Shown: piece after piece, positions 5,456-28,242 of the stretch
How positions within the stretch are numbered: position 1 is the stretch's first letter
How the letters are laid out: each line of letters opens with the position of its first letter
Source of the DNA: an uncultured Clostridia bacterium
GTDB taxonomy: Bacteria > Bacillota > Clostridia > Peptostreptococcales > Anaerovoracaceae
Assembly (NCBI GenBank): GCA_944386595.1
Contig: CALXBQ010000046.1
Location: 12,998-76,997, forward strand
Direction: 5' to 3'
Length of the DNA: 64,000 nucleotides
Notes under the pieces: model-generated
What the model was told of the DNA's origin: nothing
The model's input: only the letters and a program-made list of their open reading frames with translations
Database searches by the model: none
Made by a program: the position numbers and the translations under genes

Positions 5456-7303
5456 TTAGGCAGCATTTGCAGCGTTATATATCTTCTGAACAGTCTCTGC
5501 AGACACTGCGTTAACACCGCCGATAACGGTCATATCGTACTTCTTTTCCTTTATGATTTTCGAAGCCGCATCAGTATCGTTGACGTTCACCAGAAGCAGC
5601 GGGCATCCGGTATGTGCCGCAAGTGCTCCGCCTGTGAGGGCGTCAGCATAATTGAGGCCGTAAGCTATGTACGCGGTCTTGCCGGCTTTGTTCTCGAAGA
5701 ACTTATCTACAACCATTTCATTGGTTTCATATCTGGTTTCGCCTGCAAGGCGTACAACGTCTGCACTGGCGCCTGTGGTAGTGTCCTCTACGTAATCAAG
5801 ACTTCTGAGATCGCTCTCAACACCTGCACTTACAGCCGTCGTTCCTCCGATTACATAGTACATGTCGTTAACAGATTTTATGCTCTTAAGATATTCGTCC
5901 TGTTCTGCGGTCAATGCGCTTCCTACCAGCAGAACCGGCATTCCGGTAGCGGATACGGAAAGAGCGTCAGGATAATTAAGCCCTGCGCATACGGCAATAT
6001 CCTTTAAATGATTTTCCCCGTTTTCCTTATCGATTTCAGCAATCTGCTTCAGAATCGCAATATTGGTGTCGTATCTGGTTTCTCCTCCAAGTCTTACCTC
6101 GTCGAATTTTTCCACAGCCTTCTCAAAGTCTGCGGACACCGCACTGGTTCCGCCGAGGATGTATACCTTTCCCTGGTAATCCATATGCTTGTTTATGTAT
6201 TCTACAACCATGTCCTCGGTTTCACCGTTTACAAGGAGTATAGGCGCATTCTCAACGTATGCGAGAGCGGTTCCGGAGAGAGCATCCGCAAAATCAGTTC
6301 CATCGGCAACGAGAACGGCGTTGAATCTCTTTCCGCTGAGAGTGTTTCTGAGTTTCTCTGCAACATTGATAGCAGTTTCATATCTGGTAGCGCCGGAAAT
6401 TCTTTCAGCCACTGCAAGAGGCGCATTTCCGCTGCCCCAGGACACAGTACCGAAGATTCCTGATCCGTCTTTGTAAGTAACCGTAACACCTATGACTGCG
6501 CCTTTTGTCTTATCGCTGTCTTCGATTTTGCAGGAAAGTCCGGTTCCGATAGTCTCGGTTTTTCCGTTCTTATCTGCGGTCCATCTTACGTTCACGTAGT
6601 TATTGAGATCAAAATCTTCAGCGGAAAGCACGGTGTTGTAATCCAGTGTTATGCTGTCAATCTTATAGGTTTCGCCGGCAACAGGCTGGGTTGCAGCTTC
6701 TCCCTCACTGTCCACAACCCGGACACTTTTAATGTTCTCAGGATAGTCAACGTACATTATGTGCTTATGGGCAGAGGCCTGGGCATGCAGGCTGATTACG
6801 CCCGTCACGTTCTCCGGAAATCCTTCGGCCGTCATGGTTCCTACCGTTGTCGAAGCCTTTCCGTACTGCTGAACCTCAACGGTCACGCCGTCCTTATCCA
6901 CGGTCCAGTCAAAAGCGCAGATTCCCGAAAGTCCCACAGCCTTCTCACCGGTTCCGCCCAGCTGAGCCTCATACACGGCAGGATCAGCATTAGCGGCACT
7001 GGTCTTCTTCAAAACGAGCTCAAGAGATTTGTCCTGAGAGTAGTTCAGGCTGAAAGTAAGGGTGTTGCCCACTCCGTAGGACTTACAGTTATTCAGGTCC
7101 ACGACGGTGCTGAAGCTGATTCCGTCTTCAATGTCGCCCTTAACCTTTTCGGTAGTTATGCCTTTATCGTCAACAACCACCACGTTAGGGTTCTCATTTT
7201 CGACCTGAGTCGTTTCACCCCAGCCGCTTACAGCAAACACAGGTACGGCACTCGTAACGAGCATGACTGCCGTAACCGCAAAAGCCACGATTTTCTTTTT
7301 CAT
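5456..7303 (-). CDS. secreted cell-wall/S-layer-type protein, variable N-terminal domains + 3x CWB2 anchor (paralog 1)
   Basis: Signal peptide MKKKIVAFAVTAVMLVTSAVPVFA. The C-terminal third has three ~95-aa repeats, each RxSGxTRYETA...ADGTDFADALSG...APILLV (cell wall binding repeat 2 type). Confidence 0.9.
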   Translation of the reverse strand: MKKKIVAFAVTAVMLVTSAVPVFAVSGWGETTQVENENPNVVVVDDKGITTEKVKGDIEDGISFSTVVDLNNCKSYGVGNTLTFSLNYSQDKSLELVLKKTSAANADPAVYEAQLGGTGEKAVGLSGICAFDWTVDKDGVTVEVQQYGKASTTVGTMTAEGFPENVTGVISLHAQASAHKHIMYVDYPENIKSVRVVDSEGEAATQPVAGETYKIDSITLDYNTVLSAEDFDLNNYVNVRWTADKNGKTETIGTGLSCKIEDSDKTKGAVIGVTVTYKDGSGIFGTVSWGSGNAPLAVAERISGATRYETAINVAEKLRNTLSGKRFNAVLVADGTDFADALSGTALAYVENAPILLVNGETEDMVVEYINKHMDYQGKVYILGGTSAVSADFEKAVEKFDEVRLGGETRYDTNIAILKQIAEIDKENGENHLKDIAVCAGLNYPDALSVSATGMPVLLVGSALTAEQDEYLKSIKSVNDMYYVIGGTTAVSAGVESDLRSLDYVEDTTTGASADVVRLAGETRYETNEMVVDKFFENKAGKTAYIAYGLNYADALTGGALAAHTGCPLLLVNVNDTDAASKIIKEKKYDMTVIGGVNAVSAETVQKIYNAANAA

Positions 7304-10648: not shown

Positions 10649-11911
10649 TTAGATGCAATATCCTCCGGAATATTTAACGTCTTCCTGCTTAATACATTCA
10701 CATGCTTTAAAATACATTTGAATTTGTCCCAATGGTAATTTTGAAATATTTATTTTCTCTCTTTTTATACTTGCGAGAACATACTTCATCATCGGTATAG
10801 CTTTCAATTTTATACATACATCCAACAAGTCAATCACCAAATCCACACACATTATTAGACTAATCCCATCCATCAATTCTTTAATAGCCGCTAGAGCATT
10901 ATCAATCTCATTTTTGCTAACTATGTATCCCATTTCCAATTGGCTATGAAGCTCCTTTAAAAACTTAATTCGTGTACTATATTCAAATAATGTCAATGTT
11001 GAGTAATTATATATATCAATAATCTGCTTAAATAATTCCTTGACTCGAGCAGCATCGTAGAATTCCTTTGATCTCCTAATAAAATTAATTCTTTGCTCAA
11101 TCATTCTGCACCTCTCATGCACGCACTCAGTTGACAGCGTTCTCTCATAATCACCTATATCCTTATCTGCAGATTCTACAGCATATTTTATCAATTTCTC
11201 TCCCAATTCTTCGTATTTTCTCATATGTGCTTCCGAAACACCCGACGCAAACGGCATAAAGTGAATTACATCAACTTTACTAGGCATTGGTAAACTATCC
11301 ACATCCTCAAAACTGCTCCATATATCATTTAACACTTCTTCAGCTTCAAAGCCCCCATTAATTAAAAGTTGCAAGATATTTATTTTTAATTTCATTTTTT
11401 CGTCATCGAGTAACTCCATATCTTTTATATGCCAGTATAACTCTCTAATTACAGCTTCCTCCTTTGCCTTATCGCCTGTTTGTCGTGCAAGTCTAAGTTT
11501 AAAATCGTAAACGTGTTCAAGAATATTCAAATTTTTACTATCTTCTAGAACAAACAATCGATTCTTTATATCTTCATACTCCTCTTTATGCTTATCATCG
11601 TTCTCAATTAAAAAGAGGTAGTCCGTATATACCATGGACTTTATATTATTATCCTCAAAGTTTCTTGCCCTATCTACAGATTTTTGCATGAAAAAGATAG
11701 CTTCACCCATATTCCCTGCACGTACTGAAATATTTCCCATAAACGCATACAGCAAAATTGCAAATCTTTTATGAGATGCATCATCGATGAGATGACTTTC
11801 ACTTTTTAAAGCATACTCTCTTGCCCTTGGTAGGTTTCCCTGACAAAAATAAATCCTTGCTCGTAAGAAAAAGCATACCGCTTTATCCTTCTCTTCAGTA
11901 TCCTTTATCAT
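10649..11911 (-). CDS. TPR-like all-helical repeat protein (420 aa from the first ATG); possibly the C-terminal part of a 616-aa frame interrupted by TAG
   Basis: Helical-repeat text (FFLRARIYFCQGNLPRAREYALKS, LLYAFMGNISVRAGNMGEAIFFMQKSVDRA). No good SD before ATG 11911. The frame stays open 31 codons upstream, to the TAG of ORF 12005..12499. Confidence 0.6.
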   Translation of the reverse strand: MIKDTEEKDKAVCFFLRARIYFCQGNLPRAREYALKSESHLIDDASHKRFAILLYAFMGNISVRAGNMGEAIFFMQKSVDRARNFEDNNIKSMVYTDYLFLIENDDKHKEEYEDIKNRLFVLEDSKNLNILEHVYDFKLRLARQTGDKAKEEAVIRELYWHIKDMELLDDEKMKLKINILQLLINGGFEAEEVLNDIWSSFEDVDSLPMPSKVDVIHFMPFASGVSEAHMRKYEELGEKLIKYAVESADKDIGDYERTLSTECVHERCRMIEQRINFIRRSKEFYDAARVKELFKQIIDIYNYSTLTLFEYSTRIKFLKELHSQLEMGYIVSKNEIDNALAAIKELMDGISLIMCVDLVIDLLDVCIKLKAIPMMKYVLASIKREKINISKLPLGQIQMYFKACECIKQEDVKYSGGYCI

Positions 11912-12758: not shown

Positions 12759-14675
12759 TTACGCGATTTTCTGAACTGTTGCGTTGGAAACTGCGTTCTC
12801 TCCGCCGATTACAACCAGGCCTACATAGTTAGGACTAGCTTTAACTGCATCGATAGTGTCCTGAGCTGCATCGATATTGTTCTGGTTTACGAGAACCAGA
12901 GGTGCATGATTCTGAGCTGCGAGAACTCCACCAGTAAGAGCGTCGGCATAATCCATTCCAGTAGCTACAAATGCATACTTAGCCGTACTCATATTTAATG
13001 CTGAATCGTAGCTATTGTTATATTTTGCCATTACCATCTGATTGGTTTCATATCTGTCGGCTCCGCCTGTACGAGTTACCGTAGCATCATACAGATCAGT
13101 CTCAGAAAGCTCATCTTTGATATCGTCACTTACAGCATTTCTTCCACCGATAATGTCATAAGTTCTATGACCGCCTCTAGTTAATCCGTGCAGATAGCTT
13201 CTCTGCTCCCTAGTCAGCTCAGTTCCAACAAGAAGAACAGGTTTTCCAGTAGCTGCTGCAGAGAGTGCATCTGGGTAATTAGTTCCAGATGCTACTAAGA
13301 TATTGTCGAGATTTGTCGGGTCAGCTCCAACCACTCCTAAAGCATCATATTCCTGCATAACCTTGATATTGGTGTCATATCTAGTCTCTCCGGCGATTCT
13401 CTCTACGTCAACATTGTACTGTCCGAGACTGTCTTCGAACTCTGCAGATACTGCGTTAGTTCCACCTACAATATAAACAGTGGTTCCTGCATAGCTTGCA
13501 GTGTTCTGATCAATGTATGCTTTTACTTCATCCTCGTAATCGCTATTTACAAGAAGTATCGGTGCATTCATAGCATTAGCCAATGCCGTTACAGAAAGTG
13601 CATCTGCATAGTTGGTTCCGGTAGCTACGAAAATCTTAGTGAAGTTACCAGCGTTGTCCATCTGGTCAGCTACGAGCATAGCTGTTTCGTATCTGTTAGC
13701 TCCTGCCAGTCTGTCATAGATGGCAAGTGGGTTCATATCGCCTCCCCAAGTGTAGGTTCTGAAGATTCCAGAAGTCTGATTGCCTTTTACTTCTAAGGTA
13801 ATATAGCAGCCTTCATAAGTATTATCCAGAAGATTGATATATCTTCCGTCCCAACCAATATAGCCACTACCAGTGTCGATAACCGTAACGTTCCCGTTCT
13901 TGTCAGTTGCCTTCCAAGTAAGATCTGCATAATCAAGCATTTCATCTATGGACACTTCTGTGCCATCGTCAAACGTGATGCTCTCAACTCTGTAAGCTTC
14001 ACCTTTAACTACCTGATCCACAACCTGTTCTCTATCATACTTGTCAAGTTCAACACTCCAATCAGCCGGATCAGCCTTAACAATCTTCACATCAGTAACC
14101 TTAGTAGGTACAGCGTTCTGATAAACAACGGTGTGATAGTCAGTGTTGGTAGCGCTTGCCCAAGGTCTAACTTCTACAGATACAACTGTTACAGGCTCTA
14201 CAGAACCAAGATCCCATCTGAGATAGTCTTCAACTCCTGCACTGGTGCCCTTCTCGTCAACATTCAGGAATACAAATCCGTTGGCAGTATCAACATTCCA
14301 AGAGAAAGTTGTTATGCTCTTTTCAATCGGATTGCCATCATGGTTTGCATTTCCATACTTCCAAACACCATCATTATCAAAGTTTGCGACATAATGGTAT
14401 AAATCACCATTTGTGCCCCTGAGTGTAAGGTCGATTTCCCAGATTCCACTAGTTCTGAGCATATCAACATTAACATCATAGGACTTGTCGGCGCTTATAG
14501 ATTCATTATAGGTGTTCTCAATGCCACCTTTGAGATCATTCGCATCGTCTAGTACAACCGCATTAGCAGTAGGCATATCTACCTTATCAGACGGCTCCCA
14601 GACAGCGAATACAGGTACAGCGCTGGTAACAACCATAGCGGCTGTAACTGCAAAAGCCACAAGTTTCTTTTTCAT
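12759..14675 (-). CDS. secreted cell-wall/S-layer-type protein, variable N-terminus + 3x CWB2 (paralog 2)
   Basis: Signal peptide MKKKLVAFAVTAAMVVTSAVPVFA. Three repeats of RLAGANRYETA...ATGTNYADALS...APILLVN. C-terminus is ...GGENAVSNATVQKIA. Confidence 0.9.
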   Translation of the reverse strand: MKKKLVAFAVTAAMVVTSAVPVFAVWEPSDKVDMPTANAVVLDDANDLKGGIENTYNESISADKSYDVNVDMLRTSGIWEIDLTLRGTNGDLYHYVANFDNDGVWKYGNANHDGNPIEKSITTFSWNVDTANGFVFLNVDEKGTSAGVEDYLRWDLGSVEPVTVVSVEVRPWASATNTDYHTVVYQNAVPTKVTDVKIVKADPADWSVELDKYDREQVVDQVVKGEAYRVESITFDDGTEVSIDEMLDYADLTWKATDKNGNVTVIDTGSGYIGWDGRYINLLDNTYEGCYITLEVKGNQTSGIFRTYTWGGDMNPLAIYDRLAGANRYETAMLVADQMDNAGNFTKIFVATGTNYADALSVTALANAMNAPILLVNSDYEDEVKAYIDQNTASYAGTTVYIVGGTNAVSAEFEDSLGQYNVDVERIAGETRYDTNIKVMQEYDALGVVGADPTNLDNILVASGTNYPDALSAAATGKPVLLVGTELTREQRSYLHGLTRGGHRTYDIIGGRNAVSDDIKDELSETDLYDATVTRTGGADRYETNQMVMAKYNNSYDSALNMSTAKYAFVATGMDYADALTGGVLAAQNHAPLVLVNQNNIDAAQDTIDAVKASPNYVGLVVIGGENAVSNATVQKIA

Positions 14676-15234: not shown

Positions 15235-17205
15235 TTATGCGATTTTCTGAACTGTTGCGTTGGAAACTGCGTTCTCTCCGCCGATTACTACCATACCTGC
15301 GTAGTCAGTATTGTCTGCAACTCTGTCTACAGTATCACTTGCAGGATCTGTTACGTTAGCATTTACAAGAGCCAGAGGTGCACCGTTCTGAGCTGCGAGA
15401 ACTCCTCCAGTTAACGCATCTGGATAATCCATACCGGATGCTACGAATACATACTTAGCGCTGTCTATTGTCGGTACGAACTTATCCATAACCATCATGT
15501 TAGTCTCGTATCTGTTAACGCCACCGACACGAGTTACGCTATTAGCACTGTATGCCTTTTCGAGAAGCTCATCCTTGATGTCATCGCTTACTGCAACTCT
15601 TCCGCCTACAATAACATAATCCACATCACTGTAAGTGCTGATCACATCATGTAAGTAAGTTCTCTGAGCCTTAGTAAGTTCATCACCCACAAGAAGAACT
15701 GGCTTGCCAGTAGCTGCTGCAGAAAGGGCATCTGGATAATCCATTCCGGATGCTACAAGGATCTCTCCCATGCTACCGTTCACCGTACCGATTCCACCCT
15801 TAGTCTCATCATTGTCAAATGCCTTGAGTACTTCGATATTAGTATCGTATCTGGTGTCACCGGCAATTCTCTCTACATCAACTACAAATTTCTTCAGTTC
15901 TTTTTCGAATGATGCAGATACAGCACTAGTTCCGCCTACAATATAAACCTCAGCGTTGTAGCTGGACAGATTAGCCTTGATGTAAGCAGCAACTTCATCT
16001 TCATGAGCTGCATTCACAAGAAGGATAGGTGCATCTACTTTGTTAGCGAGAGCTGTTACAGAAAGTGCATCAGCATAGTTAGTTCCGGTTGCTACGAAGA
16101 TTTTATCAAATCCGGTTCCGTCATTCATCTGGTCAGCAACTTTCATAGCGGTATCATATCTGTCATCACCAGCAATTCTCTGCTGGATTGCGAGAGATTC
16201 AGCATCCTCTCCCCATGTGGTTTCACCAAAGATACCGGAAGTCTTGTTACCGGTAACAGTTAAAGTTACATATGCGCCTTCGTACTTATCCGAAACGTAG
16301 AATTCAGTACCACCATAGCTCTTATCGTTAAGCTTATTTCCGGCAGCATCATACATATTCATTGCTGTTCCGTCTCTCTTGGTAACCTCCCAGCTAAGAT
16401 TTACATATTCTTCAACTGCGTTCTTGTCACCAGTTACATTCTTAACCTCAACCGGATTTCCATTATCATCAACAGTCCATCCGTTGATTACAGTTCCGTC
16501 ATTGAAAGTTATGCTTTTTACAACATACCAATCTTTAATTACCGGCTGATCTACAACCTGAAAATCTCCATATCTGTCAAGTATAGGGGTACCGGTTTTG
16601 TCAGCAAGAACAACTTCCACGCTAGCTACCTCGTCAGGAATCTGATTCTGGTAAACTACCGCAGTACCACTTACATCATTTCCGCCCCATCCTTCGAAAA
16701 CTACTGATTCTACATATTCAACTTCAGGATCAAGCTCTATAACGTAAGTTCTCTCTGTTCCATAAATGCCCTGATCATCGACGATCATTTCTACAAACTT
16801 CGTATCATGGGAAGTGTCAAATCTCCATGTCAAAGTGGTGATTCCACTTACACCGCATAAATCTTCGTTCGCTTCATGGCCTTTGATAAATACATGAGAG
16901 CCCGAATCACGATTTATTCCGAGAATCTGCTGGTATTCCTTGCCGTTGTTTCCTGTCATGTTCAGAACATACTGGTAGCTACCACCCGTTCTGTTCATGT
17001 CAACGGTTATACTATACTCAGCGTCATCAGTGATTTTGGTATGGTTGTAATTTTCAACAATACCGCCCTCCAGATGGGTACTGGTGAGTACGACCTCGTT
17101 ACTTTCAGGCACGCTGTCACCAGTAGCAGTCCAAGCAAGTGCAGGTACAGCGCTGGTGATCACCATAGCGGCTGTAACTGCAAAAGCCACAAGTTTCTTT
17201 TTCAT
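15235..17205 (-). CDS. secreted cell-wall/S-layer-type protein, variable N-terminus + 3x CWB2 (paralog 3)
   Basis: Signal peptide MKKKLVAFAVTAAMVITSAVPALA. Three repeats of RIAGDDRYDTA...ATGTNYADALS...APILLVN. C-terminus is GGENAVSNATVQKIA. Confidence 0.9.
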   Translation of the reverse strand: MKKKLVAFAVTAAMVITSAVPALAWTATGDSVPESNEVVLTSTHLEGGIVENYNHTKITDDAEYSITVDMNRTGGSYQYVLNMTGNNGKEYQQILGINRDSGSHVFIKGHEANEDLCGVSGITTLTWRFDTSHDTKFVEMIVDDQGIYGTERTYVIELDPEVEYVESVVFEGWGGNDVSGTAVVYQNQIPDEVASVEVVLADKTGTPILDRYGDFQVVDQPVIKDWYVVKSITFNDGTVINGWTVDDNGNPVEVKNVTGDKNAVEEYVNLSWEVTKRDGTAMNMYDAAGNKLNDKSYGGTEFYVSDKYEGAYVTLTVTGNKTSGIFGETTWGEDAESLAIQQRIAGDDRYDTAMKVADQMNDGTGFDKIFVATGTNYADALSVTALANKVDAPILLVNAAHEDEVAAYIKANLSSYNAEVYIVGGTSAVSASFEKELKKFVVDVERIAGDTRYDTNIEVLKAFDNDETKGGIGTVNGSMGEILVASGMDYPDALSAAATGKPVLLVGDELTKAQRTYLHDVISTYSDVDYVIVGGRVAVSDDIKDELLEKAYSANSVTRVGGVNRYETNMMVMDKFVPTIDSAKYVFVASGMDYPDALTGGVLAAQNGAPLALVNANVTDPASDTVDRVADNTDYAGMVVIGGENAVSNATVQKIA

Positions 17206-17900: not shown

Positions 17901-19832
17901 TTATGCGATTTTCTGAACTAATTCGTTGGATACTGCATTTTCTCCACCGAATACTACCATTCCGTATGCTGGATCTACAGCCTTAACGATTCTCTTAGCA
18001 GCCTTGTAGTTGCTGTCATTTACGAGTACCAGAGGTGCTCCTTCCTTAGCAGCGAGTACTCCACCAGCAAGTGCATCTGCATAATCGTTTCCGGTTGCTA
18101 CAAATACATAAGCTGCATCCTTGTAGTTAGGAACAAGCTTTTCAACGATGTTTCTGTTGGTTGCATATCTGTCAGCTCCACCGATACGTTCTACCTTCTT
18201 AGCATCAGCGATGTAGCTTCTTCCAGCAAGCTCGTTAAGGATGTTGCCGTTAACTGCAGTTGTTCCACCGAGAACCTTGATGTTCTTTACTGCGTAGTTT
18301 ACACCATCAGTGAGGTCTTCTCTTAAGAATTCTCTCTGATCCTTAGTCAGTCTATCACCAACAAGAAGTACAGGATATCCAGTTGCGGATGCAGAGAGTG
18401 CATCTGCATAATTGGTACCGGTAGCTACAAGGAGTGTTCTCATTCCATCATGATATCCGGTTCCAAGATTATTTGTCACCTCATCGTATGCCTTAAGCAC
18501 TTCAAGGTTAGTATCATATCTGTTGTCGCCTGCAAGTCTTTCAACATCTACGTCGAGCTTATAGAGCTTATCGGTAAATGCCTTGGATACAGCTTCATAT
18601 CCACCGATTACATAAACGTTAACATTGTAGCTAGCAGCATTGTCCATGATGTAATCTGCAACTGTATCTTCAGTTCCTGCGTTTACAAGAAGTATAGGCG
18701 CACCAATCGCCTTAGCAAAAGCTGTAGCGGACAGAGCATCTGCATACTGGTTAGCATTTCCTGTAGCAACAACATAGTTGGTGAATCCCTTTGCAAGCTT
18801 CATCTCATCAGCGATTGCCATAGCAGTTTCAAATCTGTCAGCACCTGCGATTCTGTCCATAATAGCGAGTGCGGAAGCATCATCACCCCATGTACCGTCG
18901 GTAAATATTCCGGAAGCCTTTTTTGCAACTGCCTTCAATGTAACATACTTACCCTTATAGCCATCTTTCACGGTAAATACATTAGATGCACTTTCTCCAT
19001 GATTAGTACCATCTGAATTAGTGATTACCCACTTGTAGTCAGCATATTTTGAAATCTCACCACCGTTCCACTTATAGGAACCATCTTTGTCAAGATTGTA
19101 GTTGGAAATTACAGTCTCATCATCAAAGGTAATGCTGTAAATAGCGTAAGTTTCTCCTATTACTGGCTGATCAGCAAACTGAAGCTTACCATATTTATCC
19201 AACTCAGGAACTCCAGCTTCAGTTGACTTAATTACCTGAACATCTACAATCTTGCTAGGAAGCTGCTCATCATAAACGATAGCCTGATGTCCATCCTTTA
19301 CATCTCCGTCCCAACCTTCGAACACTACGTTTTCAACGGATTCTACTTCCTTATCGAGTTTGATAGTGAACACCTCGTCAACGCCCTTTGTTCCCTGGTT
19401 GTCCACTTCTAAGTAGAGATATTTCTGATTAGGATCTCCGGCAATGTCAAACTTCCAGGTAAGAGTAGTAATCGCTGCAGGAACGGCAACATTCTTTCCC
19501 GAATCAACTACGCTCAAACCTTTTGCACCGAGACTGGTATCAATTGCCAATACCTCATCATACTTCTGTCCCTGGTTACCTACCATGTTGATAGCATACC
19601 TGAAGGTACCCTTTGTTCTCAAGAAGTCAACATTAACGGTGTAGGTATCACCGTCACTAATTGTGGTTCCGGTCTGGGAAATACCGCCCTTGAGATGAGT
19701 GTTGTCGATGAGCACCTCATTTGTCTCAGGCATGGTCTGGGTATTGTCCGGACCCCAAACAGCGAATGCAGGTACAGCGCTTGTTACAATCATAGCGGCT
19801 GTAACTGCAAAAGCCACAAGTTTCTTTTTCAT
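17901..19832 (-). CDS. secreted cell-wall/S-layer-type protein, variable N-terminus + 3x CWB2 (paralog 4)
   Basis: Signal peptide MKKKLVAFAVTAAMIVTSAVPAFA. Three repeats of RIAGADRFETA...ATGNANQYADALS...APILLVN. C-terminus is GGENAVSNELVQKIA. Confidence 0.9.
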   Translation of the reverse strand: MKKKLVAFAVTAAMIVTSAVPAFAVWGPDNTQTMPETNEVLIDNTHLKGGISQTGTTISDGDTYTVNVDFLRTKGTFRYAINMVGNQGQKYDEVLAIDTSLGAKGLSVVDSGKNVAVPAAITTLTWKFDIAGDPNQKYLYLEVDNQGTKGVDEVFTIKLDKEVESVENVVFEGWDGDVKDGHQAIVYDEQLPSKIVDVQVIKSTEAGVPELDKYGKLQFADQPVIGETYAIYSITFDDETVISNYNLDKDGSYKWNGGEISKYADYKWVITNSDGTNHGESASNVFTVKDGYKGKYVTLKAVAKKASGIFTDGTWGDDASALAIMDRIAGADRFETAMAIADEMKLAKGFTNYVVATGNANQYADALSATAFAKAIGAPILLVNAGTEDTVADYIMDNAASYNVNVYVIGGYEAVSKAFTDKLYKLDVDVERLAGDNRYDTNLEVLKAYDEVTNNLGTGYHDGMRTLLVATGTNYADALSASATGYPVLLVGDRLTKDQREFLREDLTDGVNYAVKNIKVLGGTTAVNGNILNELAGRSYIADAKKVERIGGADRYATNRNIVEKLVPNYKDAAYVFVATGNDYADALAGGVLAAKEGAPLVLVNDSNYKAAKRIVKAVDPAYGMVVFGGENAVSNELVQKIA

Positions 19833-20983: not shown

Positions 20984-22933
20984 TTATGCGATTTTCTGAA
21001 CTAATTCGTTGGATACTGCATTTTCTCCACCGATTACTACAAGTCCTGCATAGTTGGAATTAGATCCTGTGTTAACCATCTCAATGATGTCCTTAGCAGG
21101 GTCGATTTCGCTGTTGTTTACCAGTACGAGCGGTGCACCATTGTGTGCAGCCAGTGCTCCACCGGTAAGTGCGTCTGCATAATCGTTTCCAGTTGCAACG
21201 AATACATACTTAGCAGAACCCTTATTTTCAACGAACTTTTCCATAACCATCATGTTGGTTTCAAATCTGTCAGCTCCGCCTATTCTGGTTACGCTCTTTG
21301 CTTTGTAAGCTTTAGAGGAAAGTTCATCTTTTACATCATCGCTTACAGCATTTCTTCCGCCAATGATTGTGTAGTTTCTCTGATCTGCTGCTTCGCTATT
21401 AATCTCATAGATATAATTTCTCTGCTCCTTTGTAAGCGCATCTCCTACCAGAAGAACCGGCTTGCCAGTAGCAGCTGCAGAAAGTGCATCTGGGAAATTA
21501 TTACCGGAAGCTACGAGAATATCAAACATATCTCCGTCTGCTCCTATACCTTCTGGTGCCTTGTTATCAAATGCCTTCAGAACCGCAATGTTAGTTGCAT
21601 ATCTGTCAGCACCTGCAATTCTGTCTACATCTACTGCGAACTTCTTAAGCGCTGTTTCAAAGTCTGCGGATACAGCCTTTTCTCCACCAACGATATACAC
21701 GTTAGCATTGTAATTTGCTGCGTTATCCTTAATGTACTGTGCTACTTTTTCTTCATAATCGCCATTTACCAGAAGAACCGGTGCGCCTACTTTATCAGCA
21801 AGTGCGGTTACAGAAAGTGCATCTGCGTAGTTAGCTCCTGTAGCTACGAAAATGTTGGTAAATCCGTCTGCTGGCTTCATCTGATCAGCAACCTTTATAG
21901 CGGTTTCATATCTGTCAGCGCCAGCGATTCTCTGCTGAATAGCAATGGATTCTGCATCTTCACCCCATGTTGCCTCGCCGAAAATACCAGAAGTCTTGTT
22001 GCCGGAAACAGTAGCCGTTACATATGCACCCTTGTAATTGTCGTTGTTAACTTCGAAGTGAACATTCTTAGAAAGATTTTCTAACTTAACTTCTGTACCG
22101 TCTCTCTTAGTAACTGCCCAGTTATAGTTAACATACTCTCCTACATCACCAGTGTAACCCGTTACCTTTCCGTCTTTGATGACAAAGTTACTAATTTCAG
22201 TTCCATCATTAAAGGTGATGCTGTTAACCACATACTTTCCACCGAAAACCGGCTGGTCTACTACCTGAACTCTGCCATATTTATCAAGGTCAGGAATCCA
22301 TCCGGTCATTTCGTTCACTCCATTTACATACTCAGCCTTAACTACTTCTACGTCAGTTACATATTCAGGAACCTGATCCTGGTAAATGGTAGTAGTATCG
22401 CTAGCAGCACCAGCTTTGTAACCATCTCTGTTAACAACCGATACGGATACTACTTCTTCTGCTTCTGTTGGGAGATCCCACTCAAGGTAAGTATCTACAG
22501 CCGTTGTAGTATTCAGTGAGTCAACATTAAGAAAAATCTTCTTGGCTTTTTCGCTTACTTCCCAAGAGAAAGTAGTGATTCCCGTATTGATAGTCTTGTG
22601 TGATCCAGGTACACCGCCCTTCCAAACCTGATCATTATCAAATACAGCCTTTGTTGTGATAATCTTATCCTTATTGGTTCTCAGGTCAAGACTTAAAACA
22701 TAGTTACCACTGGTCTTTAACAGGTCAACGGTAACACCGTAGGTAGCACCTTCTGTTATAGAGGCTTCAATCTCGTTAGTGATTCCGCCTTTAAGGGTAT
22801 CCTTATCGAGAACAACTGCATTGGCTTCAGGCCAATCAGCCTGTCCTGCAGGACCCCACTCAGCAAATACAGGTACAGCGCTGGTTACTACCATAGCGGC
22901 TGTAACTGCAAAAGCCACAAGTTTCTTTTTCAT
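20984..22933 (-). CDS. secreted cell-wall/S-layer-type protein, variable N-terminus + 3x CWB2 (paralog 5)
   Basis: Signal peptide MKKKLVAFAVTAAMVVTSAVPVFA. Three repeats of RIAGADRYETA...ATGANYADALS...APVLLVN. C-terminus is GGENAVSNELVQKIA. Confidence 0.9.
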   Translation of the reverse strand: MKKKLVAFAVTAAMVVTSAVPVFAEWGPAGQADWPEANAVVLDKDTLKGGITNEIEASITEGATYGVTVDLLKTSGNYVLSLDLRTNKDKIITTKAVFDNDQVWKGGVPGSHKTINTGITTFSWEVSEKAKKIFLNVDSLNTTTAVDTYLEWDLPTEAEEVVSVSVVNRDGYKAGAASDTTTIYQDQVPEYVTDVEVVKAEYVNGVNEMTGWIPDLDKYGRVQVVDQPVFGGKYVVNSITFNDGTEISNFVIKDGKVTGYTGDVGEYVNYNWAVTKRDGTEVKLENLSKNVHFEVNNDNYKGAYVTATVSGNKTSGIFGEATWGEDAESIAIQQRIAGADRYETAIKVADQMKPADGFTNIFVATGANYADALSVTALADKVGAPVLLVNGDYEEKVAQYIKDNAANYNANVYIVGGEKAVSADFETALKKFAVDVDRIAGADRYATNIAVLKAFDNKAPEGIGADGDMFDILVASGNNFPDALSAAATGKPVLLVGDALTKEQRNYIYEINSEAADQRNYTIIGGRNAVSDDVKDELSSKAYKAKSVTRIGGADRFETNMMVMEKFVENKGSAKYVFVATGNDYADALTGGALAAHNGAPLVLVNNSEIDPAKDIIEMVNTGSNSNYAGLVVIGGENAVSNELVQKIA

Positions 22934-23004
22934 TACATCCTCCTTCTCACTTTTGCAAGTGATGTTTGCTTTGATTAAGTTTTAGCAACATAAATTTCAC
23001 AGTA

Positions 23005-23034
23005 AGTATACCCCCCCCGGTAAATATTTGTCAA
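23005..23034 (-). promoter_or_regulatory. sigma-A promoter of paralog 5 with a G8 tract in the spacer (the only 18-nt spacer)
   Basis: TTGACA (23034-23029), 18-nt spacer with C-run 23011-23018 (8 C), TATACT (23010-23005). Confidence 0.7.
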
Positions 23035-23269
23035 CACCTATTTTTTGAACCCGTGAGAAATCTTTCAGCGAATTTTGACTCAAACGCCGACGGAACCGGT
23101 GTGGGGGTATAAGCCAAAATAGGAGGATTACAGGGGGTTTTGCCCAAATAGGCAGGTGAGGATTTTGAAGCAAAGAATGTTTGTTATTAGAAAAACATTT
23201 CTGCAACGTCGATCAACTTTTTTCGGCTTTACGGTTGAAAGTCGCGAAAGGTTAGATTATAATAAAGCC

Positions 23270-23358
23270 AAGAGGAAGCGGGTAGCCGACTTTCTGATAG
23301 AGTTTTAATTAAAATCAAAACCGTCTCAGGTGGTCAGACCTGGGGCGGTTTACTTTTT
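23270..23358 (+). ncRNA. candidate antitoxin sRNA (~90 nt), convergent with and 3'-overlapping the small toxin ORF
   Basis: Near-consensus promoter: TTGAAA (23235-23240), 17 nt, TATAAT (23258-23263). The transcript would start near 23270. It would end at hairpin AAAACCGUCUCAGGU-GGUCAG-ACCUGGGGCGGUUU followed by ACUUUUU. Confidence 0.45.
23317..23358. terminator. bidirectional terminator shared by the toxin mRNA and the sRNA
   Basis: A 12-bp stem flanked by AAAAUCAAAA on one side and UUUACUUUUU on the other. It pairs fully (with two G-U) in the plus transcript and has two C-A mismatches in the minus transcript. Confidence 0.55.
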
Positions 23359-23427
23359 ACGGTGGTTATCCCATCTGATTAACCCCATAATCATCAAGAC
23401 GATTACGAGGATTTCATAATCAGACAT
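23350..23427 (-). CDS. type I toxin-like 25-aa hydrophobic peptide
   Basis: GGAAAGGAGCC then ATG. Product is MSDYEILVIVLMIMGLIRWDNHRKK, one TM helix plus a basic tail. An extended -10 TGGTATAAT (core at 23482-23477) lies upstream. The stop codon abuts the shared hairpin. Below the 60-aa cutoff of the ORF track. Confidence 0.5.
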   Translation of the reverse strand: MSDYEILVIVLMIMGLIRWDNHRKK

Positions 23428-23633
23428 AAGGCTCCTTTCCGAAAGTCGACCGCCTCCCGTCCTCTTGGCAAGTTTGATTATACCACAGTCGTCACACCAT
23501 TTCTGTAGCATACCCCTCATATACAAAAACAGAATTTCCAGACATAATTTCAGAAAATGAATTGTAGGGGAAACCGGGACAATTCAACATCGCAGGTTTT
23601 CACTGATTAATTATGCGTCACAATCACGACACG

Positions 23634-23662
23634 AAAAACCGCAGACATTTGCGCCTGCGGTT
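23634..23662 (-). terminator. rho-independent terminator ending the paralog 6 transcript
   Basis: Minus strand reads AACCGCAG-GCGCAAAUGU-CUGCGGUU followed by UUUCGUG. Confidence 0.75.
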
Positions 23663-23969
23663 TCGTTCGAAAATCCCTTGTGGCTTTTGCTTTATGTTGC
23701 TGCATAAACTTAATCACTGGGAGATTTTCCTTGTTTTGTTTTCGTGGGGTATCCCCCCGAAAGGACAAAGTGTGCCGCCCGGATCTTCGGCATCCGGGTT
23801 ATGAGCCCGACGCGCTTACCAGCACCGGCCTGTCGCTTGCCTCAAGCGTTCTGTAATCTTCCTCCTGTCTTTTCGGTGAGACACTTTTTATATAATATCG
23901 AGCCGCGGGCATTAACTCCGCGACTCGATATCTTTTGAAAATCGTGTTTACTTTAGTCTATTTATGTTG
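23634..23969 (-). other. conserved structured 3' UTR module of paralog 6 (longer variant)
   Basis: Post-stop box at 23960-23972 overlaps the TAG stop. GC hairpin at 23895-23931. Pseudo-leader at 23691-23735, where TTTATGTTGCTGCATAAACTTAATCA mirrors the 5' leader TTTATGTTGCTAAAACTTAATCA. Confidence 0.55.
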
Positions 23970-25820
23970 CTACTGTCCTACTACGATTTCCTGAACCAAT
24001 TCGTTGGAAACTGCAGCCGTTCCACCGAATACGAAGATTCTGCCCTCACTAGCAACACCTTCACTTGCGATAATGTAGTTAGCAGTTTCAACGTTGTTAT
24101 TGTTTACCAATGCCAGAGGGTAAGGACCATAAGCTGCGGCATTTGCTGCGGCAACGAGACCGTCTGCAAAATCATCGCCCGTCGCTACGTATACAGCAGG
24201 TGTAGAATTCCACTTATCAGAGAATGCCTGATATACTCTCTCATTAGTTGTATATCTGTTATCTCCTGCCACTCTTACAACATCAGTCAGTACATTTGCT
24301 ACATATTCTCCACTCTGCAGTTCACCGAACAAATCAGCACTTACAGCATTGGTGCCACCAATTACGTAGTACTTGTCATTCTGTCCGAGAGAGCCTAAGA
24401 ACTTTCTCTGTGCACTGTTAAGGCTGTCACCTACCAGAAGCACTGGTTCTCCGGTTGCAGCTGCTGAAAGAACATCTGCATACGAGGTTCCAGATGCAAC
24501 GAGTATTTCAGCTGAAGAATCTATTTCCAGCTCATCGAGTACTGCAAGATTTGTTACATATCTATCTGCACCCGCAAGTCTCTCTACATCAGCGTATCTA
24601 TAAAGAGCATCTTCAAAACCCTGAGAAACGACGCTGGTTCCACCGATGATGTAAATCTTGGTTCCATTATAAGTTGCATTTGCATTTATAAAGTCTACGA
24701 CTGCCTCTTCATAATCGTCATTTACCAGAAGTACTGGATATTTTTTCTCAGCTGCAAGTGCAACTGCAGAAAGTGCATCAGGATAATCCGCACCGCTTGC
24801 AATTACAACTCCACCGAACTTCTGTCCTGACTGCAATGTTGCTTTCGCAAGATTCATCGCAGTTTCATATCTGTTAGCACCTGCATAACGTGTAAATCTT
24901 GCAAGAGCCTCAGAGTCAGCACCCCAAACTACTTCATCGAATACTCCAGTTCCTGCCTTACCGGATACCACTGCAGTAATCTTATGTCCCTGATCGTCAG
25001 CGGTTGGAGTGTACTTAACGTCTGTACCAACAACAGTAACACCATCTCTCAGCCAGGCGATATCAGTGTATGTTTTAATATCATCGGCTGTCGTAAGCTT
25101 GGTATCAGCTGTCAGTGTAACTTCGCTTATAGTGAGTTCCTGTCCGAGAACGGCCTGAGTAGCCTCAACATATTCAGGAACAGTATAACTTGCTCCCTGT
25201 CTTGCGGCCTCTATAGGGTCGTATTCTTCATTCTTAACGATAACCTTGAGGCTTTCTACGTTTTCCGGATGCTCATAATACATAGTCATTGCGACATCTC
25301 CGCCTGCATTGAAGTGAGAAATCCAGTCAGCTCCTTCAGCAAGTCCAAGCTTCTTTGTGGTTACTTTTGGGGTCTGAAGCCCAAGTTCAATAACCGATAC
25401 ATCCACTCCGTATTCAGATACATCGTACACAAGTTCAATCATTCCCTTGGTGTTAGAAACTATCTGTTCACCATTCACAGTGATATTAGATCCTGTGCTC
25501 CAACCACGAACAACGGTTGAAATCTGATCCTTCTGAGTACCATTTTCCTTGTCGGCAAAGAATAAATCGTACTGATAATAGTGTCCCTCTCCAGGACCCT
25601 TGTTTAAATCAATCACCTGACTGAAGTGAGCACCATCAGCAGCAGGGCCAGCTACAGCATAAGTTGCCCTATTCTCACCTGCATTTAAGGTGATCACATT
25701 TGGATTCGGATTAGTCGTCGGAGTAGTCGGCTTATCCGTCCAGTCTACAGCAAATACAGGTACAGCGCTGGTGATTATCATAGCTGCCGTAACTGCAAAA
25801 GCTACAAGTTTCTTTTTCAT
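23970..25820 (-). CDS. secreted cell-wall/S-layer-type protein, variable N-terminus + 3x CWB2 (paralog 6)
   Basis: Signal peptide MKKKLVAFAVTAAMIITSAVPVFA. Three repeats of RYAGANRYETA...ASGADYPDALS...YPVLLVN. The N-terminal type resembles paralog 1 (MYYEHPENVESL vs MYVDYPENIKSV). Confidence 0.9.
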   Translation of the reverse strand: MKKKLVAFAVTAAMIITSAVPVFAVDWTDKPTTPTTNPNPNVITLNAGENRATYAVAGPAADGAHFSQVIDLNKGPGEGHYYQYDLFFADKENGTQKDQISTVVRGWSTGSNITVNGEQIVSNTKGMIELVYDVSEYGVDVSVIELGLQTPKVTTKKLGLAEGADWISHFNAGGDVAMTMYYEHPENVESLKVIVKNEEYDPIEAARQGASYTVPEYVEATQAVLGQELTISEVTLTADTKLTTADDIKTYTDIAWLRDGVTVVGTDVKYTPTADDQGHKITAVVSGKAGTGVFDEVVWGADSEALARFTRYAGANRYETAMNLAKATLQSGQKFGGVVIASGADYPDALSAVALAAEKKYPVLLVNDDYEEAVVDFINANATYNGTKIYIIGGTSVVSQGFEDALYRYADVERLAGADRYVTNLAVLDELEIDSSAEILVASGTSYADVLSAAATGEPVLLVGDSLNSAQRKFLGSLGQNDKYYVIGGTNAVSADLFGELQSGEYVANVLTDVVRVAGDNRYTTNERVYQAFSDKWNSTPAVYVATGDDFADGLVAAANAAAYGPYPLALVNNNNVETANYIIASEGVASEGRIFVFGGTAAVSNELVQEIVVGQ

Positions 25821-26301: not shown

Positions 26302-28242
26302 TTATGCGATTTTCTGAACTACTTCGTTGGATACAGCGTTCTCTCCACCGATTACGATGAAGCGGTCGAATGCTGCTTCTCCGATATCAGTCTTGATGTT
26401 GCTTACGATATTCTTAGCCACCTTAGTGTTAGATTCGCTTACGAGTACGAGCGGTGCTCCATACTGTGAATTGGTTGCTGCAAGTACGCCACCGGTAAGA
26501 GCATCTGCATATCCGTTTCCGGACGCAACATATACAACATTTGCTGATCCTGCGCTGTACTTACCGCCAACCTTGAAGAAAGTCTCCACAATCTTCTTGT
26601 TGGTAGCATATCTGTCGGTTCCGCCGAGACGGGTTACCTGAGTTGTATCAGTTATGTAATCCTTAGACTTCAGCGCCTTCTCAACGCTCTTCGATACAGC
26701 GCTGGTTCCTCCTGCAATGTATATTGCATCTACTGTGTCAGCATCTTCAAGAGCCTTAAGATAAGTGTCCTGAACCGGCTTAATGCTGTCTCCTACGAGA
26801 AGCACAGGTCTTGCTGTTGCAGCTGCAGTCAGTGCGTCTGCGTAATTATTTCCAGTTGCTACAAAGAGCTGGCTCATTGCACCATCAGTTGCACCAAGTC
26901 CGGTGCCGGCAGTTTCGTTGCCTGCGTAAGCCTTGAGTATTGCAACGTTAGTCTGATATCTGTTAGCGCCTTCAAGTCTTGTTACATTCTTATACTTGTA
27001 AAGGCTGTCTTCAAAGCTCTGAGATACTGCACTTGTTCCACCAAGAACTACAATCTGAGTATTGCTGAAGCTTTTTGCATTTTCATCGATATATGCTTTT
27101 ACTGCAGCTTCGTGGCTTCCATCTACCAGAAGTATAGGAGCCTCAAGTTTGCTGGCAAGAGCAGTTGCAGAAAGTGCGTCTGCATAATCAGTTCCGGTAG
27201 CTACGATTACGTACTCAAGTTTGCCATTCTTAGCAATCATCTTGTCTGCAACCTTCATTGCAGTTTCATATCTGTCGTCACCGGCGATTCTGTCTTTAGT
27301 TGCAAGAGCCTCTGCATCAGCACCCCAGGTTACAGTATCAAAGATGCCGGATACTTTGTTACCCTTTACAGTAACGGTAACGAGAGCTCCCTCGAACTTC
27401 TTGACATCACTTATCATGAGACCATTACCGTCGTAAATCAAATCACAATCTGATGCGCCAATCGGGCTAATCTGATTCACACCATTCTTCATGGCTTTCC
27501 ATTCTACTGTTACATACTTTGCGAGATCGTCATAGCCGATAACTGTTCCATCATCTAACGTTACGCTGTTTACTCTGTATGCCTTGCCTGCTACCGGCTG
27601 GGTTGCAACCACAGGCTTGCCATCAGTACCAGTAACTACTGCAAAATTATTAGCAGGATCACACTCAACAACCTCTACAGACTGTACATCTACAGGAGCT
27701 TCGTTCTGATAGATAACGAACTGACCCGTTGTACTTAAAACTACAGATGATACAGTGTCAAACTCGCCAACAAGCTTCGAAGATACTGTTATTTCATCCC
27801 TTTCCGTCTCACCGAGTTCATCCATGACGAGAGTAACCTCTCCTGCTTTGAAAGTCCATTTCAAATTAACAATACCTTTAACTACTTTCTCTGTAGAATA
27901 GTCCTCTCCAATTCTAACACGAGCAGACCTGGATGTGTCAGGCCAAACCCAAGTCTTTACCAATCCAGCTTTGGCATTATCACCCTTACCTAAATGGATG
28001 TCAACTACGCTGTTGCCCGCAATTCTGTTGGTATCAACAATCATCTCGTAAGTAGCACCCTCTTCAGTAATAGCTGCGTTGATGTTTTCAACGATACCCT
28101 GTGACTGAGCCGGTGTCACTATAACCTCATTCTTGGTGAGGTCGATAGATGGCTGACCGCCGATCTCCCAAGCAAGTGCAGGTACAGCGCTGGCAACTAC
28201 CATAGCGGCTGTAACTGCAAAAGCTACAAGTTTCTTTTTCAT
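26302..28242 (-). CDS. secreted cell-wall/S-layer-type protein, variable N-terminus + 3x CWB2 (paralog 7)
   Basis: Signal peptide MKKKLVAFAVTAAMVVASAVPALA. Three repeats of RIAGDDRYETA...ATGTDYADALS...APILLVD. C-terminus is GGENAVSNEVVQKIA. Confidence 0.9.
   Translation of the reverse strand: MKKKLVAFAVTAAMVVASAVPALAWEIGGQPSIDLTKNEVIVTPAQSQGIVENINAAITEEGATYEMIVDTNRIAGNSVVDIHLGKGDNAKAGLVKTWVWPDTSRSARVRIGEDYSTEKVVKGIVNLKWTFKAGEVTLVMDELGETERDEITVSSKLVGEFDTVSSVVLSTTGQFVIYQNEAPVDVQSVEVVECDPANNFAVVTGTDGKPVVATQPVAGKAYRVNSVTLDDGTVIGYDDLAKYVTVEWKAMKNGVNQISPIGASDCDLIYDGNGLMISDVKKFEGALVTVTVKGNKVSGIFDTVTWGADAEALATKDRIAGDDRYETAMKVADKMIAKNGKLEYVIVATGTDYADALSATALASKLEAPILLVDGSHEAAVKAYIDENAKSFSNTQIVVLGGTSAVSQSFEDSLYKYKNVTRLEGANRYQTNVAILKAYAGNETAGTGLGATDGAMSQLFVATGNNYADALTAAATARPVLLVGDSIKPVQDTYLKALEDADTVDAIYIAGGTSAVSKSVEKALKSKDYITDTTQVTRLGGTDRYATNKKIVETFFKVGGKYSAGSANVVYVASGNGYADALTGGVLAATNSQYGAPLVLVSESNTKVAKNIVSNIKTDIGEAAFDRFIVIGGENAVSNEVVQKIA

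Follow-up and report, generated by a model that had tools for sequence, protein, structure and literature searches.

A probable type I toxin-antitoxin-like module of the TxpA/BsrG superfamily in an intergenic region of an uncultured clostridial bacterium

The window analysed here, a stretch of 64,000 nucleotides of DNA from an uncultured clostridial bacterium, contains between two paralogous genes a compact pair of convergent transcription units that probably belongs to the TxpA/BsrG ('holin-like toxin') superfamily as a type I toxin-antitoxin-like module, its toxicity and expression being predictions from homology and architecture. A sequence-only reading of the same DNA had proposed a type I module arranged like txpA/RatA and bsrG/SR4 of Bacillus subtilis. 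This proposal gained support from coding constraint on the ORF, from conserved promoters, SD and hairpin, from the alignment of the peptide family with BsrG and from rli28 and RatA matches in related loci. The outcome is solid and not surprising: the module is of a known kind (type I toxin-antitoxin, BsrG/TxpA relatives), and what is new is an unannotated subfamily or variant of it.

Layout of the module

The module is single-copy in the window and lies inside a unique insert of ~780 nt (~23110-23890). Only the first ~177 nt and the last ~80 nt of the spacer that bears this insert are common to the other paralog spacers. The flanking paralogs encode secreted proteins of 616-649 aa with three CWB2 repeats each. 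BLAST similarity of the insert to other loci was confined to 23258-23455, i.e. to the module itself, which is composed of the following elements.

23477..23485, minus: toxin promoter, TG-extended -10 TGGTATAAT, TATAAT core at 23482-23477 (read directly)
23428..23469, minus: putative toxin mRNA leader, ~42 nt (read directly and from homolog alignment)
23469-23460, minus: leader 5' motif GCCAAGAGGA
23454-23449, minus: leader box GGCGGT
23445-23441, minus: anti-SD CUUUC in the toxin leader
23440-23432, minus: SD GGAAAGGAG of the toxin gene
23350..23427, minus: toxin ORF, 25 codons (MSDYEILVIVLMIMGLIRWDNHRKK) plus TAA; ATG at 23427-23425, TAA at 23352-23350
23374..23424, minus: predicted stem inside the ORF (MFE, RNAalifold), UCUGAUUA (codons 2-4, 23424-23417) with UAAUCAGA (codons 16-18, 23381-23374)
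23235..23263, plus: antisense RNA promoter TTGAAA-17-TATAAT, 11 of 12 consensus positions
23267..23360, plus: predicted antisense sRNA, ~90 nt, with a two-part 5' hairpin (~23273-23295), an A/U-rich linker and the terminator
23318..23351, both strands: shared bidirectional terminator hairpin, 14 bp; each transcript has a U tract there, and the stop codon overlaps the start of the hairpin

All of the minus-strand elements of the earlier proposal (extended -10, leader, SD, ATG, 25-aa ORF and stop) were present where they had been placed. The -35 element of the toxin gene, CAGAAA at 23505-23500 (minus), is weak and agrees with the consensus at three of six positions. At the equivalent -10 position, six homologous loci (L015, L030, L033, L055, L063 and L068) carry TGGTATAAT, TGGTATATT or TGGTATACT. 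The 25-aa peptide consists of a hydrophobic core followed by a charged RWDNHRKK tail, which fits the pattern of small (<60 aa) type I toxins; the core comprises only ~12-15 residues, which is short for a membrane span.

On the plus strand, the near-consensus promoter and the convergent hairpin with its U-tracts were likewise as the sequence-only reading had described them, the hairpin being followed 3' by a T run on the plus strand and by TTTTGATTTT on the minus strand. Since both RNAs would end at one bidirectional hairpin, they would be perfectly complementary over ~50 nt (predicted overlap ~23308-23360), an interval that runs from the last 3-4 codons through the stop codon to the terminator, as in the TxpA/RatA and BsrE-G-H families. 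The claimed complementarity over the last toxin codons and the terminator thus follows from the positions of promoters and terminator, which are themselves predicted signals. The predicted sRNA folds at -35 kcal/mol (z = -5.0 versus shuffles), and its 5' hairpin is found in the RNAalifold consensus with limited covariation.

Relatives and conservation

Relatives of the peptide came from degenerate DNA patterns and not from the tblastn check that had been recommended, which returned no match in the phage and plasmid collections. When the first nine codons were back-translated into a pattern, true diverged homologs came to light in three viral contigs, and a slightly relaxed pattern, applied to a collection with one genome per species, recovered 75 loci where ~7 were expected by chance. 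A 58-aa extended form of the ORF had one match only, a 97%-identical metagenome contig (L001) in which D20V is the sole informative change. Other patterns led nowhere: a scan of viral contigs for the leader motif GCCAAGAGGA-N8-14-GACTTTC yielded chance matches only (L002-L014), and two further degenerate patterns added only chance matches (L018, L020 and L021).

Nearly all of the 75 loci encode peptides of 22-40 aa that begin M[ST]DYEI[LF][VMI]I and continue with a hydrophobic stretch and a basic tail, and a GGAGG-type SD precedes the ORFs of the family peptides found; only L062 and L089 resemble chance matches. Because the shared N-terminus was imposed by the search pattern, it cannot alone count as evidence of homology. 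The pattern placed no constraint on the SD, on the basic tail, on the shortness of the ORF or on anything outside the ORF. The loci include the following subgroups.

Subgroup A: the window type with the ...RWDNHRK tail, eleven loci including the viral L015 and L016
Subgroup B: MSDYEIFMIILTTASLIVSILTYTHKK, shared without change by many Lachnospiraceae genomes, Blautia included
Subgroup C: peptides of 39-40 aa in Pseudobutyrivibrio, Butyrivibrio and Oribacterium
Subgroup D: Staphylococcus and Mammaliicoccus
Subgroup E: Spirochaete MAGs, with several copies each

Most of these relatives are unannotated or labelled 'hypothetical', and a full-text search of the literature library for the peptide motifs found no paper. 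The module falls into a distinct DYEIL clade, most of which escapes current gene callers and Pfam and Rfam models in Clostridia.

The pattern of substitutions shows coding constraint on the ORF. In pairwise comparisons of nine distinct group A sequences (36 pairs, codons 1-17), 109, 0 and 223 substitutions fall at codon positions 1, 2 and 3, respectively; with changes almost only at positions 1 and 3, the ORF is therefore most likely translated. A comparison of the window with L015 shows the same in a single pair, with four synonymous and three conservative changes (M14I, L16I and I17V) in codons 1-17 and, beyond codon 17, one synonymous change (CGT to CGA) and one lysine fewer. Loss of the ORF in loci that keep the nucleotide sequence had been named as a finding that would speak against a toxin gene; the opposite was found, the peptide being kept by way of synonymous and conservative changes.

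The two-RNA architecture is conserved as well. The 12 aligned group A loci keep the extended -10, the G(T/C)CAAGAG start motif, the GGCGG box, the (C/T)TTCGGAAAGG anti-SD/SD stretch, the ORF and a hairpin beginning at the stop codon, and their opposite strand has the promoter TTGCA(A/T)-17-TATA(A/T)T and, downstream of it, the G(T/C)CAAGAG... leader once more. In a wider set of 65 distinct modules, many of which are close relatives and not independent, a convergent promoter-like site lies 69-121 nt past the stop codon in 53 (86 nt in the window); shuffled sequences yield 4.1, and the toxin strand of that region yields 6. In most modules the last codons are in addition overlapped by a hairpin that has a T run on the antisense strand. 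The 3' overlap typical of RatA/SR4-type antitoxins is thus seen at the level of predicted signals, in an arrangement kept in those 53 modules.

Mirrored leaders and RNA pairing

The motif GCCAAGAGGA forms an exact 10-nt inverted repeat (23267-23276 and 23460-23469) and is followed on both strands by CGACTTTC, which bears out the earlier observation that both RNAs begin with the same motif. The toxin and sRNA genes have a promoter-plus-leader cassette in common, in inverted orientation, and the unit is bounded by an imperfect inverted repeat of ~30 nt. Of 32 representative loci, 16 reached z > 3 in a local alignment of the mirrored cassette, and the window reached z = 9.7. No clear equivalent of this mirrored cassette was detected for bsrG/SR4, and no earlier description of a mirrored promoter-leader arrangement combined with leader-to-terminator complementarity was found in the literature compared.

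The fold of the toxin mRNA is moderately more stable than that of shuffles (z = -2.6). Both the MFE structure and the RNAalifold consensus of nine group A mRNAs place a small hairpin over the SD and pair the GGCGG of the leader box with CCGCC in the 5' arm of the terminator. In the consensus, the stem between codons 2-4 and 16-18 is accompanied by two compensatory changes (GAT/ATC to GAC/GTC). The structures at the SD and the start codon derive from MFE and RNAalifold predictions, and covariation within the closest group is limited.

Pairing between leader and terminator was compared across 32 loci with distinct terminators. The toxin leader paired more favourably with its own terminator arm than with the arms of other loci (-16.3 versus -14.5 kcal/mol, permutation p = 0.001), and in the window's column no value was better than the cognate one, -26.3 kcal/mol. 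With a control target placed within the ORF the effect was absent (p = 0.66), and for the equivalent arm of the sRNA the cognate pairing gave p = 0.007. This complementarity suggests either a translationally inert conformer closed from 5' to 3' or an additional contact with the sRNA. The data do not separate these options, of which the cis one has the better score in the window.

A further contact proposed by the sequence-only reading, between CUUUCUG of the sRNA and the toxin SD, is not supported statistically. The complementarity CUUUCUG(A)/(U)CGGAAAG exists in the window sequence (7-8 bp), but the 5' part of the sRNA scored no better than shuffles (z ~ -0.7), and the sRNA 5' region paired with the toxin leader above shuffles in none of 12 loci. 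The sRNA leader and the toxin leader are paralogs, and the toxin leader carries the anti-SD; the resemblance follows from this.

From homology and architecture we infer how such a module would operate, including its transcription, the toxicity of the peptide, the action of the antitoxin and the RNase involved. The minus strand would give rise, from the extended -10, to an mRNA of ~160 nt encoding the 25-aa peptide, a single hydrophobic helix followed by a basic tail, which by analogy with BsrG and TxpA would enter the membrane and do harm when overproduced. From the near-consensus promoter of the plus strand would come an sRNA of ~90 nt that would pair with the 3' end of the toxin mRNA, as RatA and SR4 do. 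This pairing may lead to cleavage of the duplex, possibly by RNase III, and/or to a fold in which the SD stays closed. Even without the sRNA, poor translation of the toxin mRNA is predicted, because its SD adjoins the anti-SD CUUUC, codons 2-4 pair with codons 16-18 and GGCGG can pair with CCGCC; the last of these pairings, between leader box and terminator arm, would close the mRNA from 5' to 3'.

Affiliation, rival readings and meaning

To relate the peptides to known toxins, we used a family profile (A5) of 38 peptides with the window peptide first, and a BsrG sequence verified in phage SPbeta. Alignment with hhalign gave a probability of 89.8% (E = 1.8e-6) over residues 1-18, with 44% identity. 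The Pfam family Hol_Tox (PF16935) was the top family for 13 of the 38 members at E <= 1, and one of the 38 reached 25 bits against a gathering threshold of 23.3 bits. The window peptide itself had no Pfam match at E <= 10 and so did not reach that threshold, and neither it nor the 58-aa extended ORF matched anything in Pfam, NCBIfam or PHROGs.

The RNAs behaved in a similar manner. No match to Rfam rli28, RatA or BsrG was found for the window RNAs, even at E <= 10 on 251 nt (23240-23490), and RatA (RF01776; gathering threshold 49 bits) and rli28 (RF01492; 45 bits) were not found in 22900-24000 either; a permissive Rfam search of the module returned only spurious weak matches (greA leader, His leader and snoRNAs). 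In the Staphylococcus/Mammaliicoccus loci L027, L087 and L090, rli28 matched with 76-105 bits, and in L087 and L090 the match covers the mRNA of a DYEIL-family peptide. Opposite these staphylococcal matches, RatA scored a sub-threshold 30-40 bits, and BsrG RNA was also sub-threshold. DNA homologs of the Mammaliicoccus module occur on 482 plasmids of Enterococcus, Staphylococcus and Listeria; one of these homologs adjoins an annotated 'putative holin-like toxin', and one carries an annotated 25-aa peptide, MSDYEMLMIVLTIIGLVLISNNQKK. Listeria plasmids carry rli28 in convergent orientation to RatA and overlapping a BsrH-like ORF (PMC9484302).

A covariance search with the sRNA had been suggested as well, and it succeeded in part: matches appeared at the expected antisense positions, and those outside the training set were weak. 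The model built from homolog sRNAs scored 69.5 bits at window positions 23266-23364, a value obtained with the window sequence in the training set. The clostridial model gave weak matches (E = 0.02-0.8) in staphylococcal loci and one Spirochaete locus, among them matches on staphylococcal plasmids at the exact antisense position opposite the 'putative holin-like toxin' and the 25-aa MSDYEM peptide. The first model contained only 6 base pairs, the MAFFT alignment of the terminators being poor, and was therefore used as a sequence profile only. The peptide and RNA matches show homology of the module to BsrG and to rli28/RatA-type loci.

The likeness to bsrG/SR4 (SPbeta prophage) and txpA/RatA (skin element) of B. 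subtilis extends to the N-terminus M-[ST]-x-Y-E-x-L-[MV]-I, the hydrophobic helix and the basic tail, to a convergent antisense RNA over the 3' end and part of the ORF and to the association with prophages, and it may include the predicted occlusion of the SD. The window module differs in an RNA overlap of only ~50 nt and in the length of the peptide, 25 aa compared with 38 aa for BsrG; TxpA, with 59 aa, is longer still. For the TxpA family, the count of Fozo et al. stands at 118 members, a part of which go by the name of holin-like toxins (PMC2887945), and Clostridiales are represented in it (PMC2887945; PMC6563280). Type I families of Gram-positive bacteria have antisense RNAs that overlap at the 3' end and also overlap the ORF (PMC8594479).

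The rli28 (RF01492)/RatA-like loci on plasmids and chromosomes of Listeria, Staphylococcus and Enterococcus have the same geometry as the window module. Staphylococcaceae peptides starting M[ST]DYE[IM]LMI lie within the rli28 matches, with a RatA-like RNA opposite, and a GA(U/C)GGUGGCU-type box is present in both RNAs, whereas the uncultured clostridial host, the RWDNHRKK tail and the leader sequence set the window module apart. For SprG/SprF of S. aureus, with its TxpA-like toxin, the likeness is to the 3' (antisense/terminator) part of the Mammaliicoccus module, whose DNA is 75.8% identical to the sequence next to a 'putative holin-like toxin' annotated in S. aureus, where the sRNA model also matches at the antisense position; the S. 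aureus peptide (VVSVVDALNLMFSF...) is without the DYEIL start, and its hhalign match was weak (probability 55%).

Convergent transcripts and a bidirectional terminator are also found in par (fst/RNA II) of the Enterococcus plasmid pAD1. That locus has repeated sequence elements near both 5' ends, and the repeats are direct in the DNA, so that the two RNAs are complementary there, whereas the repeats of the window module are inverted, so that both RNAs carry the same sequence. Fst has no similarity to the window peptide, and in the Fst/RNAII geometry the antisense RNA does not overlap the ORF (PMC8594479). Type I systems of C. difficile (e.g. CD2517.1/RCd8) are likewise clostridial and prophage-linked and combine a small membrane peptide with an antisense RNA (PMC6563280). 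Their toxins, of 34-59 aa, are unrelated to the B. subtilis families (PMC6563280), and for this reason no similarity to the window peptide is expected.

A tentative and rather doubtful reading goes further and takes M[ST]DYEI[LF] as a distinct, undescribed type I toxin-antitoxin family whose regulatory logic, with a mirrored cassette and a leader box that co-varies with the terminator arm, is unlike that of txpA/RatA. Were it true, the terminator arms would be contested by two RNAs with identical 5' domains, and regulation would consist in a conformational switch over termination, 5'-3' closure or RNA-RNA recognition and not in simple 3' antisense pairing. A family so defined would spread over Clostridia, Staphylococcaceae and Spirochaete MAGs, and its toxins of 22-27 aa would be among the shortest in Gram-positives.

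The genomic setting bears on the question of whether the peptide is a toxin at all. It could instead be a small membrane peptide with a physiological role in the timing of phage lysis, in holin activity or in the regulation of a membrane protein, tuned by the cis-antisense RNA, which we consider unlikely. Such a role would agree with six close homologs located exactly between the holin and amidase-endolysin genes of prophages and with L091, which adjoins a holin, as well as with the 'holin-like' name of the closest Pfam family, the very short hydrophobic segment and the existence of type I-like peptides that are not toxic, e.g. YhzE-2 (PMC2887945). The window copy, L022, L033, L036 and L054, however, lie outside phage lysis cassettes, other copies being chromosomal and intergenic; in L015 a Phd/RelE-like pair follows the module of the prophage lysis cassette. 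Moreover, the relatives BsrG and TxpA are experimentally toxic (PMC2887945; PMC6563280). With its own promoters and terminator the module behaves as an autonomous unit, a small and often phage-borne one, as is usual for type I systems of Firmicutes, and this too argues against such a role.

It is highly improbable that the 25-codon ORF is fortuitous and that the unit is a non-coding palindrome or a mobile element, whether MITE-like or made up of two convergent non-coding RNAs. The inverted repeat that bounds the unit, the end of homology between loci at the module borders, the unrelated genomic contexts and the several copies per genome in some MAGs are what one would expect of such an element. 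Yet the inverted repeats are promoters and leaders and not element termini, codon position 2 never changes while position 3 changes most, and every family member retains the SD and the start codon. A search for the marks of a MITE or small mobile element (terminal repeats, target-site duplication, dispersed copies) did not bear this reading out: no target-site duplication was seen, the window has a single copy, and the multi-copy genomes carry their copies in prophages.

A chance coincidence of promoter-, SD- and hairpin-like motifs in an AT-rich spacer, which the counts in the window alone would allow (3 promoter-like sites versus 1.9 expected and 2 matches to the shared motif versus 1.4, neither remarkable nor above shuffled expectation), is refuted by the retention of the whole arrangement in dozens of genomes of several families. 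The signals of the module owe their significance to this conservation in other genomes and not to rarity within the window.

Since gene callers, Pfam and Rfam miss the module in Clostridia, a sizeable BsrG/TxpA-like clade appears to be hidden in gut and rumen Firmicutes and their prophages. Loci of this kind are relevant to the maintenance of prophages and mobile elements, to phage defence and to persistence. The mirrored cassette and the leader-arm complementarity offer concrete, testable hypotheses of regulation, and the 25-aa peptide is a compact candidate for a membrane-active peptide.

Genomic setting of the module

Seven paralogous secreted proteins of ~615-656 aa are arrayed in the window, all encoded on the minus strand:

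5456-7303, minus, paralog gene
12759-14675, minus, paralog gene
15235-17205, minus, paralog gene
17901-19832, minus, paralog gene
20984-22933, minus, paralog gene
23970-25820, minus, paralog gene
26302-28242, minus, paralog gene

The signal peptide (MKKKLVAFAVTAAM...) is almost identical across the seven proteins, and three CWB2 cell-wall-binding repeats per protein were found in both of the paralogs tested (2 of seven). The N-terminal halves of the paralogs differ, and the spacer ends upstream and downstream are conserved. The array looks like a surface-protein variation locus.

The unique insert that carries the toxin-antitoxin-like module also contains a weak match to the Rfam PreQ1 family (15.8 bits, gathering score 39; E = 2.9) on GGGGGGAUACCCCACGAAAACAAAACAAGG, located between the paralog 6 terminator on one side and the toxin promoter on the other:

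23725-23764, minus, PreQ1-like match, Rfam, below the gathering score
23630-23665, terminator-like hairpin, about 60 nt downstream of the match

The A-rich tail of this match is similar to the tails of preQ1-I aptamers. The match is probably due to chance.

Toxin ORF boundaries and the distribution of the peptide family

Gene callers moved the start of the toxin ORF upstream, as in the two following cases:

23350-23526, minus, extended toxin ORF of 58 aa with a TTG start
P0001, L001 (metagenome contig) 261-500, extended toxin ORF of 79 aa, a length caused by a 1-nt deletion

Therefore, database entries of the M[ST]DYEI[LF] peptide family may be wrongly long fusions that conceal the true 25-aa peptide.

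One peptide, MSDYEIFMIILTTASLIVSILTYTHKK, occurs with the same or nearly the same sequence in more than 20 species-level genomes (loci L023-L025, L029, L032, L037, L040, L043, L048, L052, L057, L064, L070, L072, L073, L078, L079, L082, L084, L086, L092 and L094), including those of Blautia, Muricoprocola, Ruminococcus and Marvinbryantia, as well as bins labelled Prevotella and Eggerthellaceae. The consensus antisense promoter TTGACA-17-TATAAT is present at every copy. This pattern suggests either that the copies travel on a promiscuous mobile element or that the bins are contaminated.

Sphaerochaetaceae and Spirochaetales MAGs contain two to three copies of the family each, with the same architecture (L056/L080/L081, L058/L074/L077 and L061/L083); thus, if the binning is correct, the family crosses phylum boundaries.

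Tandem and prophage-borne modules

Modules occur in tandem at two loci. At L036, a second sRNA-like copy (2451-2543, minus; 41.8 bits with model R1) adjoins what looks like the remnant of another toxin ORF, and L087 carries two rli28-type copies ~500 nt apart (943-1125 and 1429-1614, minus).

Prophage modules are placed precisely between the holin and amidase endolysin genes (L015, 9957-11698; L016, L030, L055, L068 and L075), and in L015 the module is followed by a Phd/RelE-like type II pair (11119-11698). The predicted bidirectional terminator of the module would lie within the lysis cassette, which leaves transcription of the endolysin gene to be explained.
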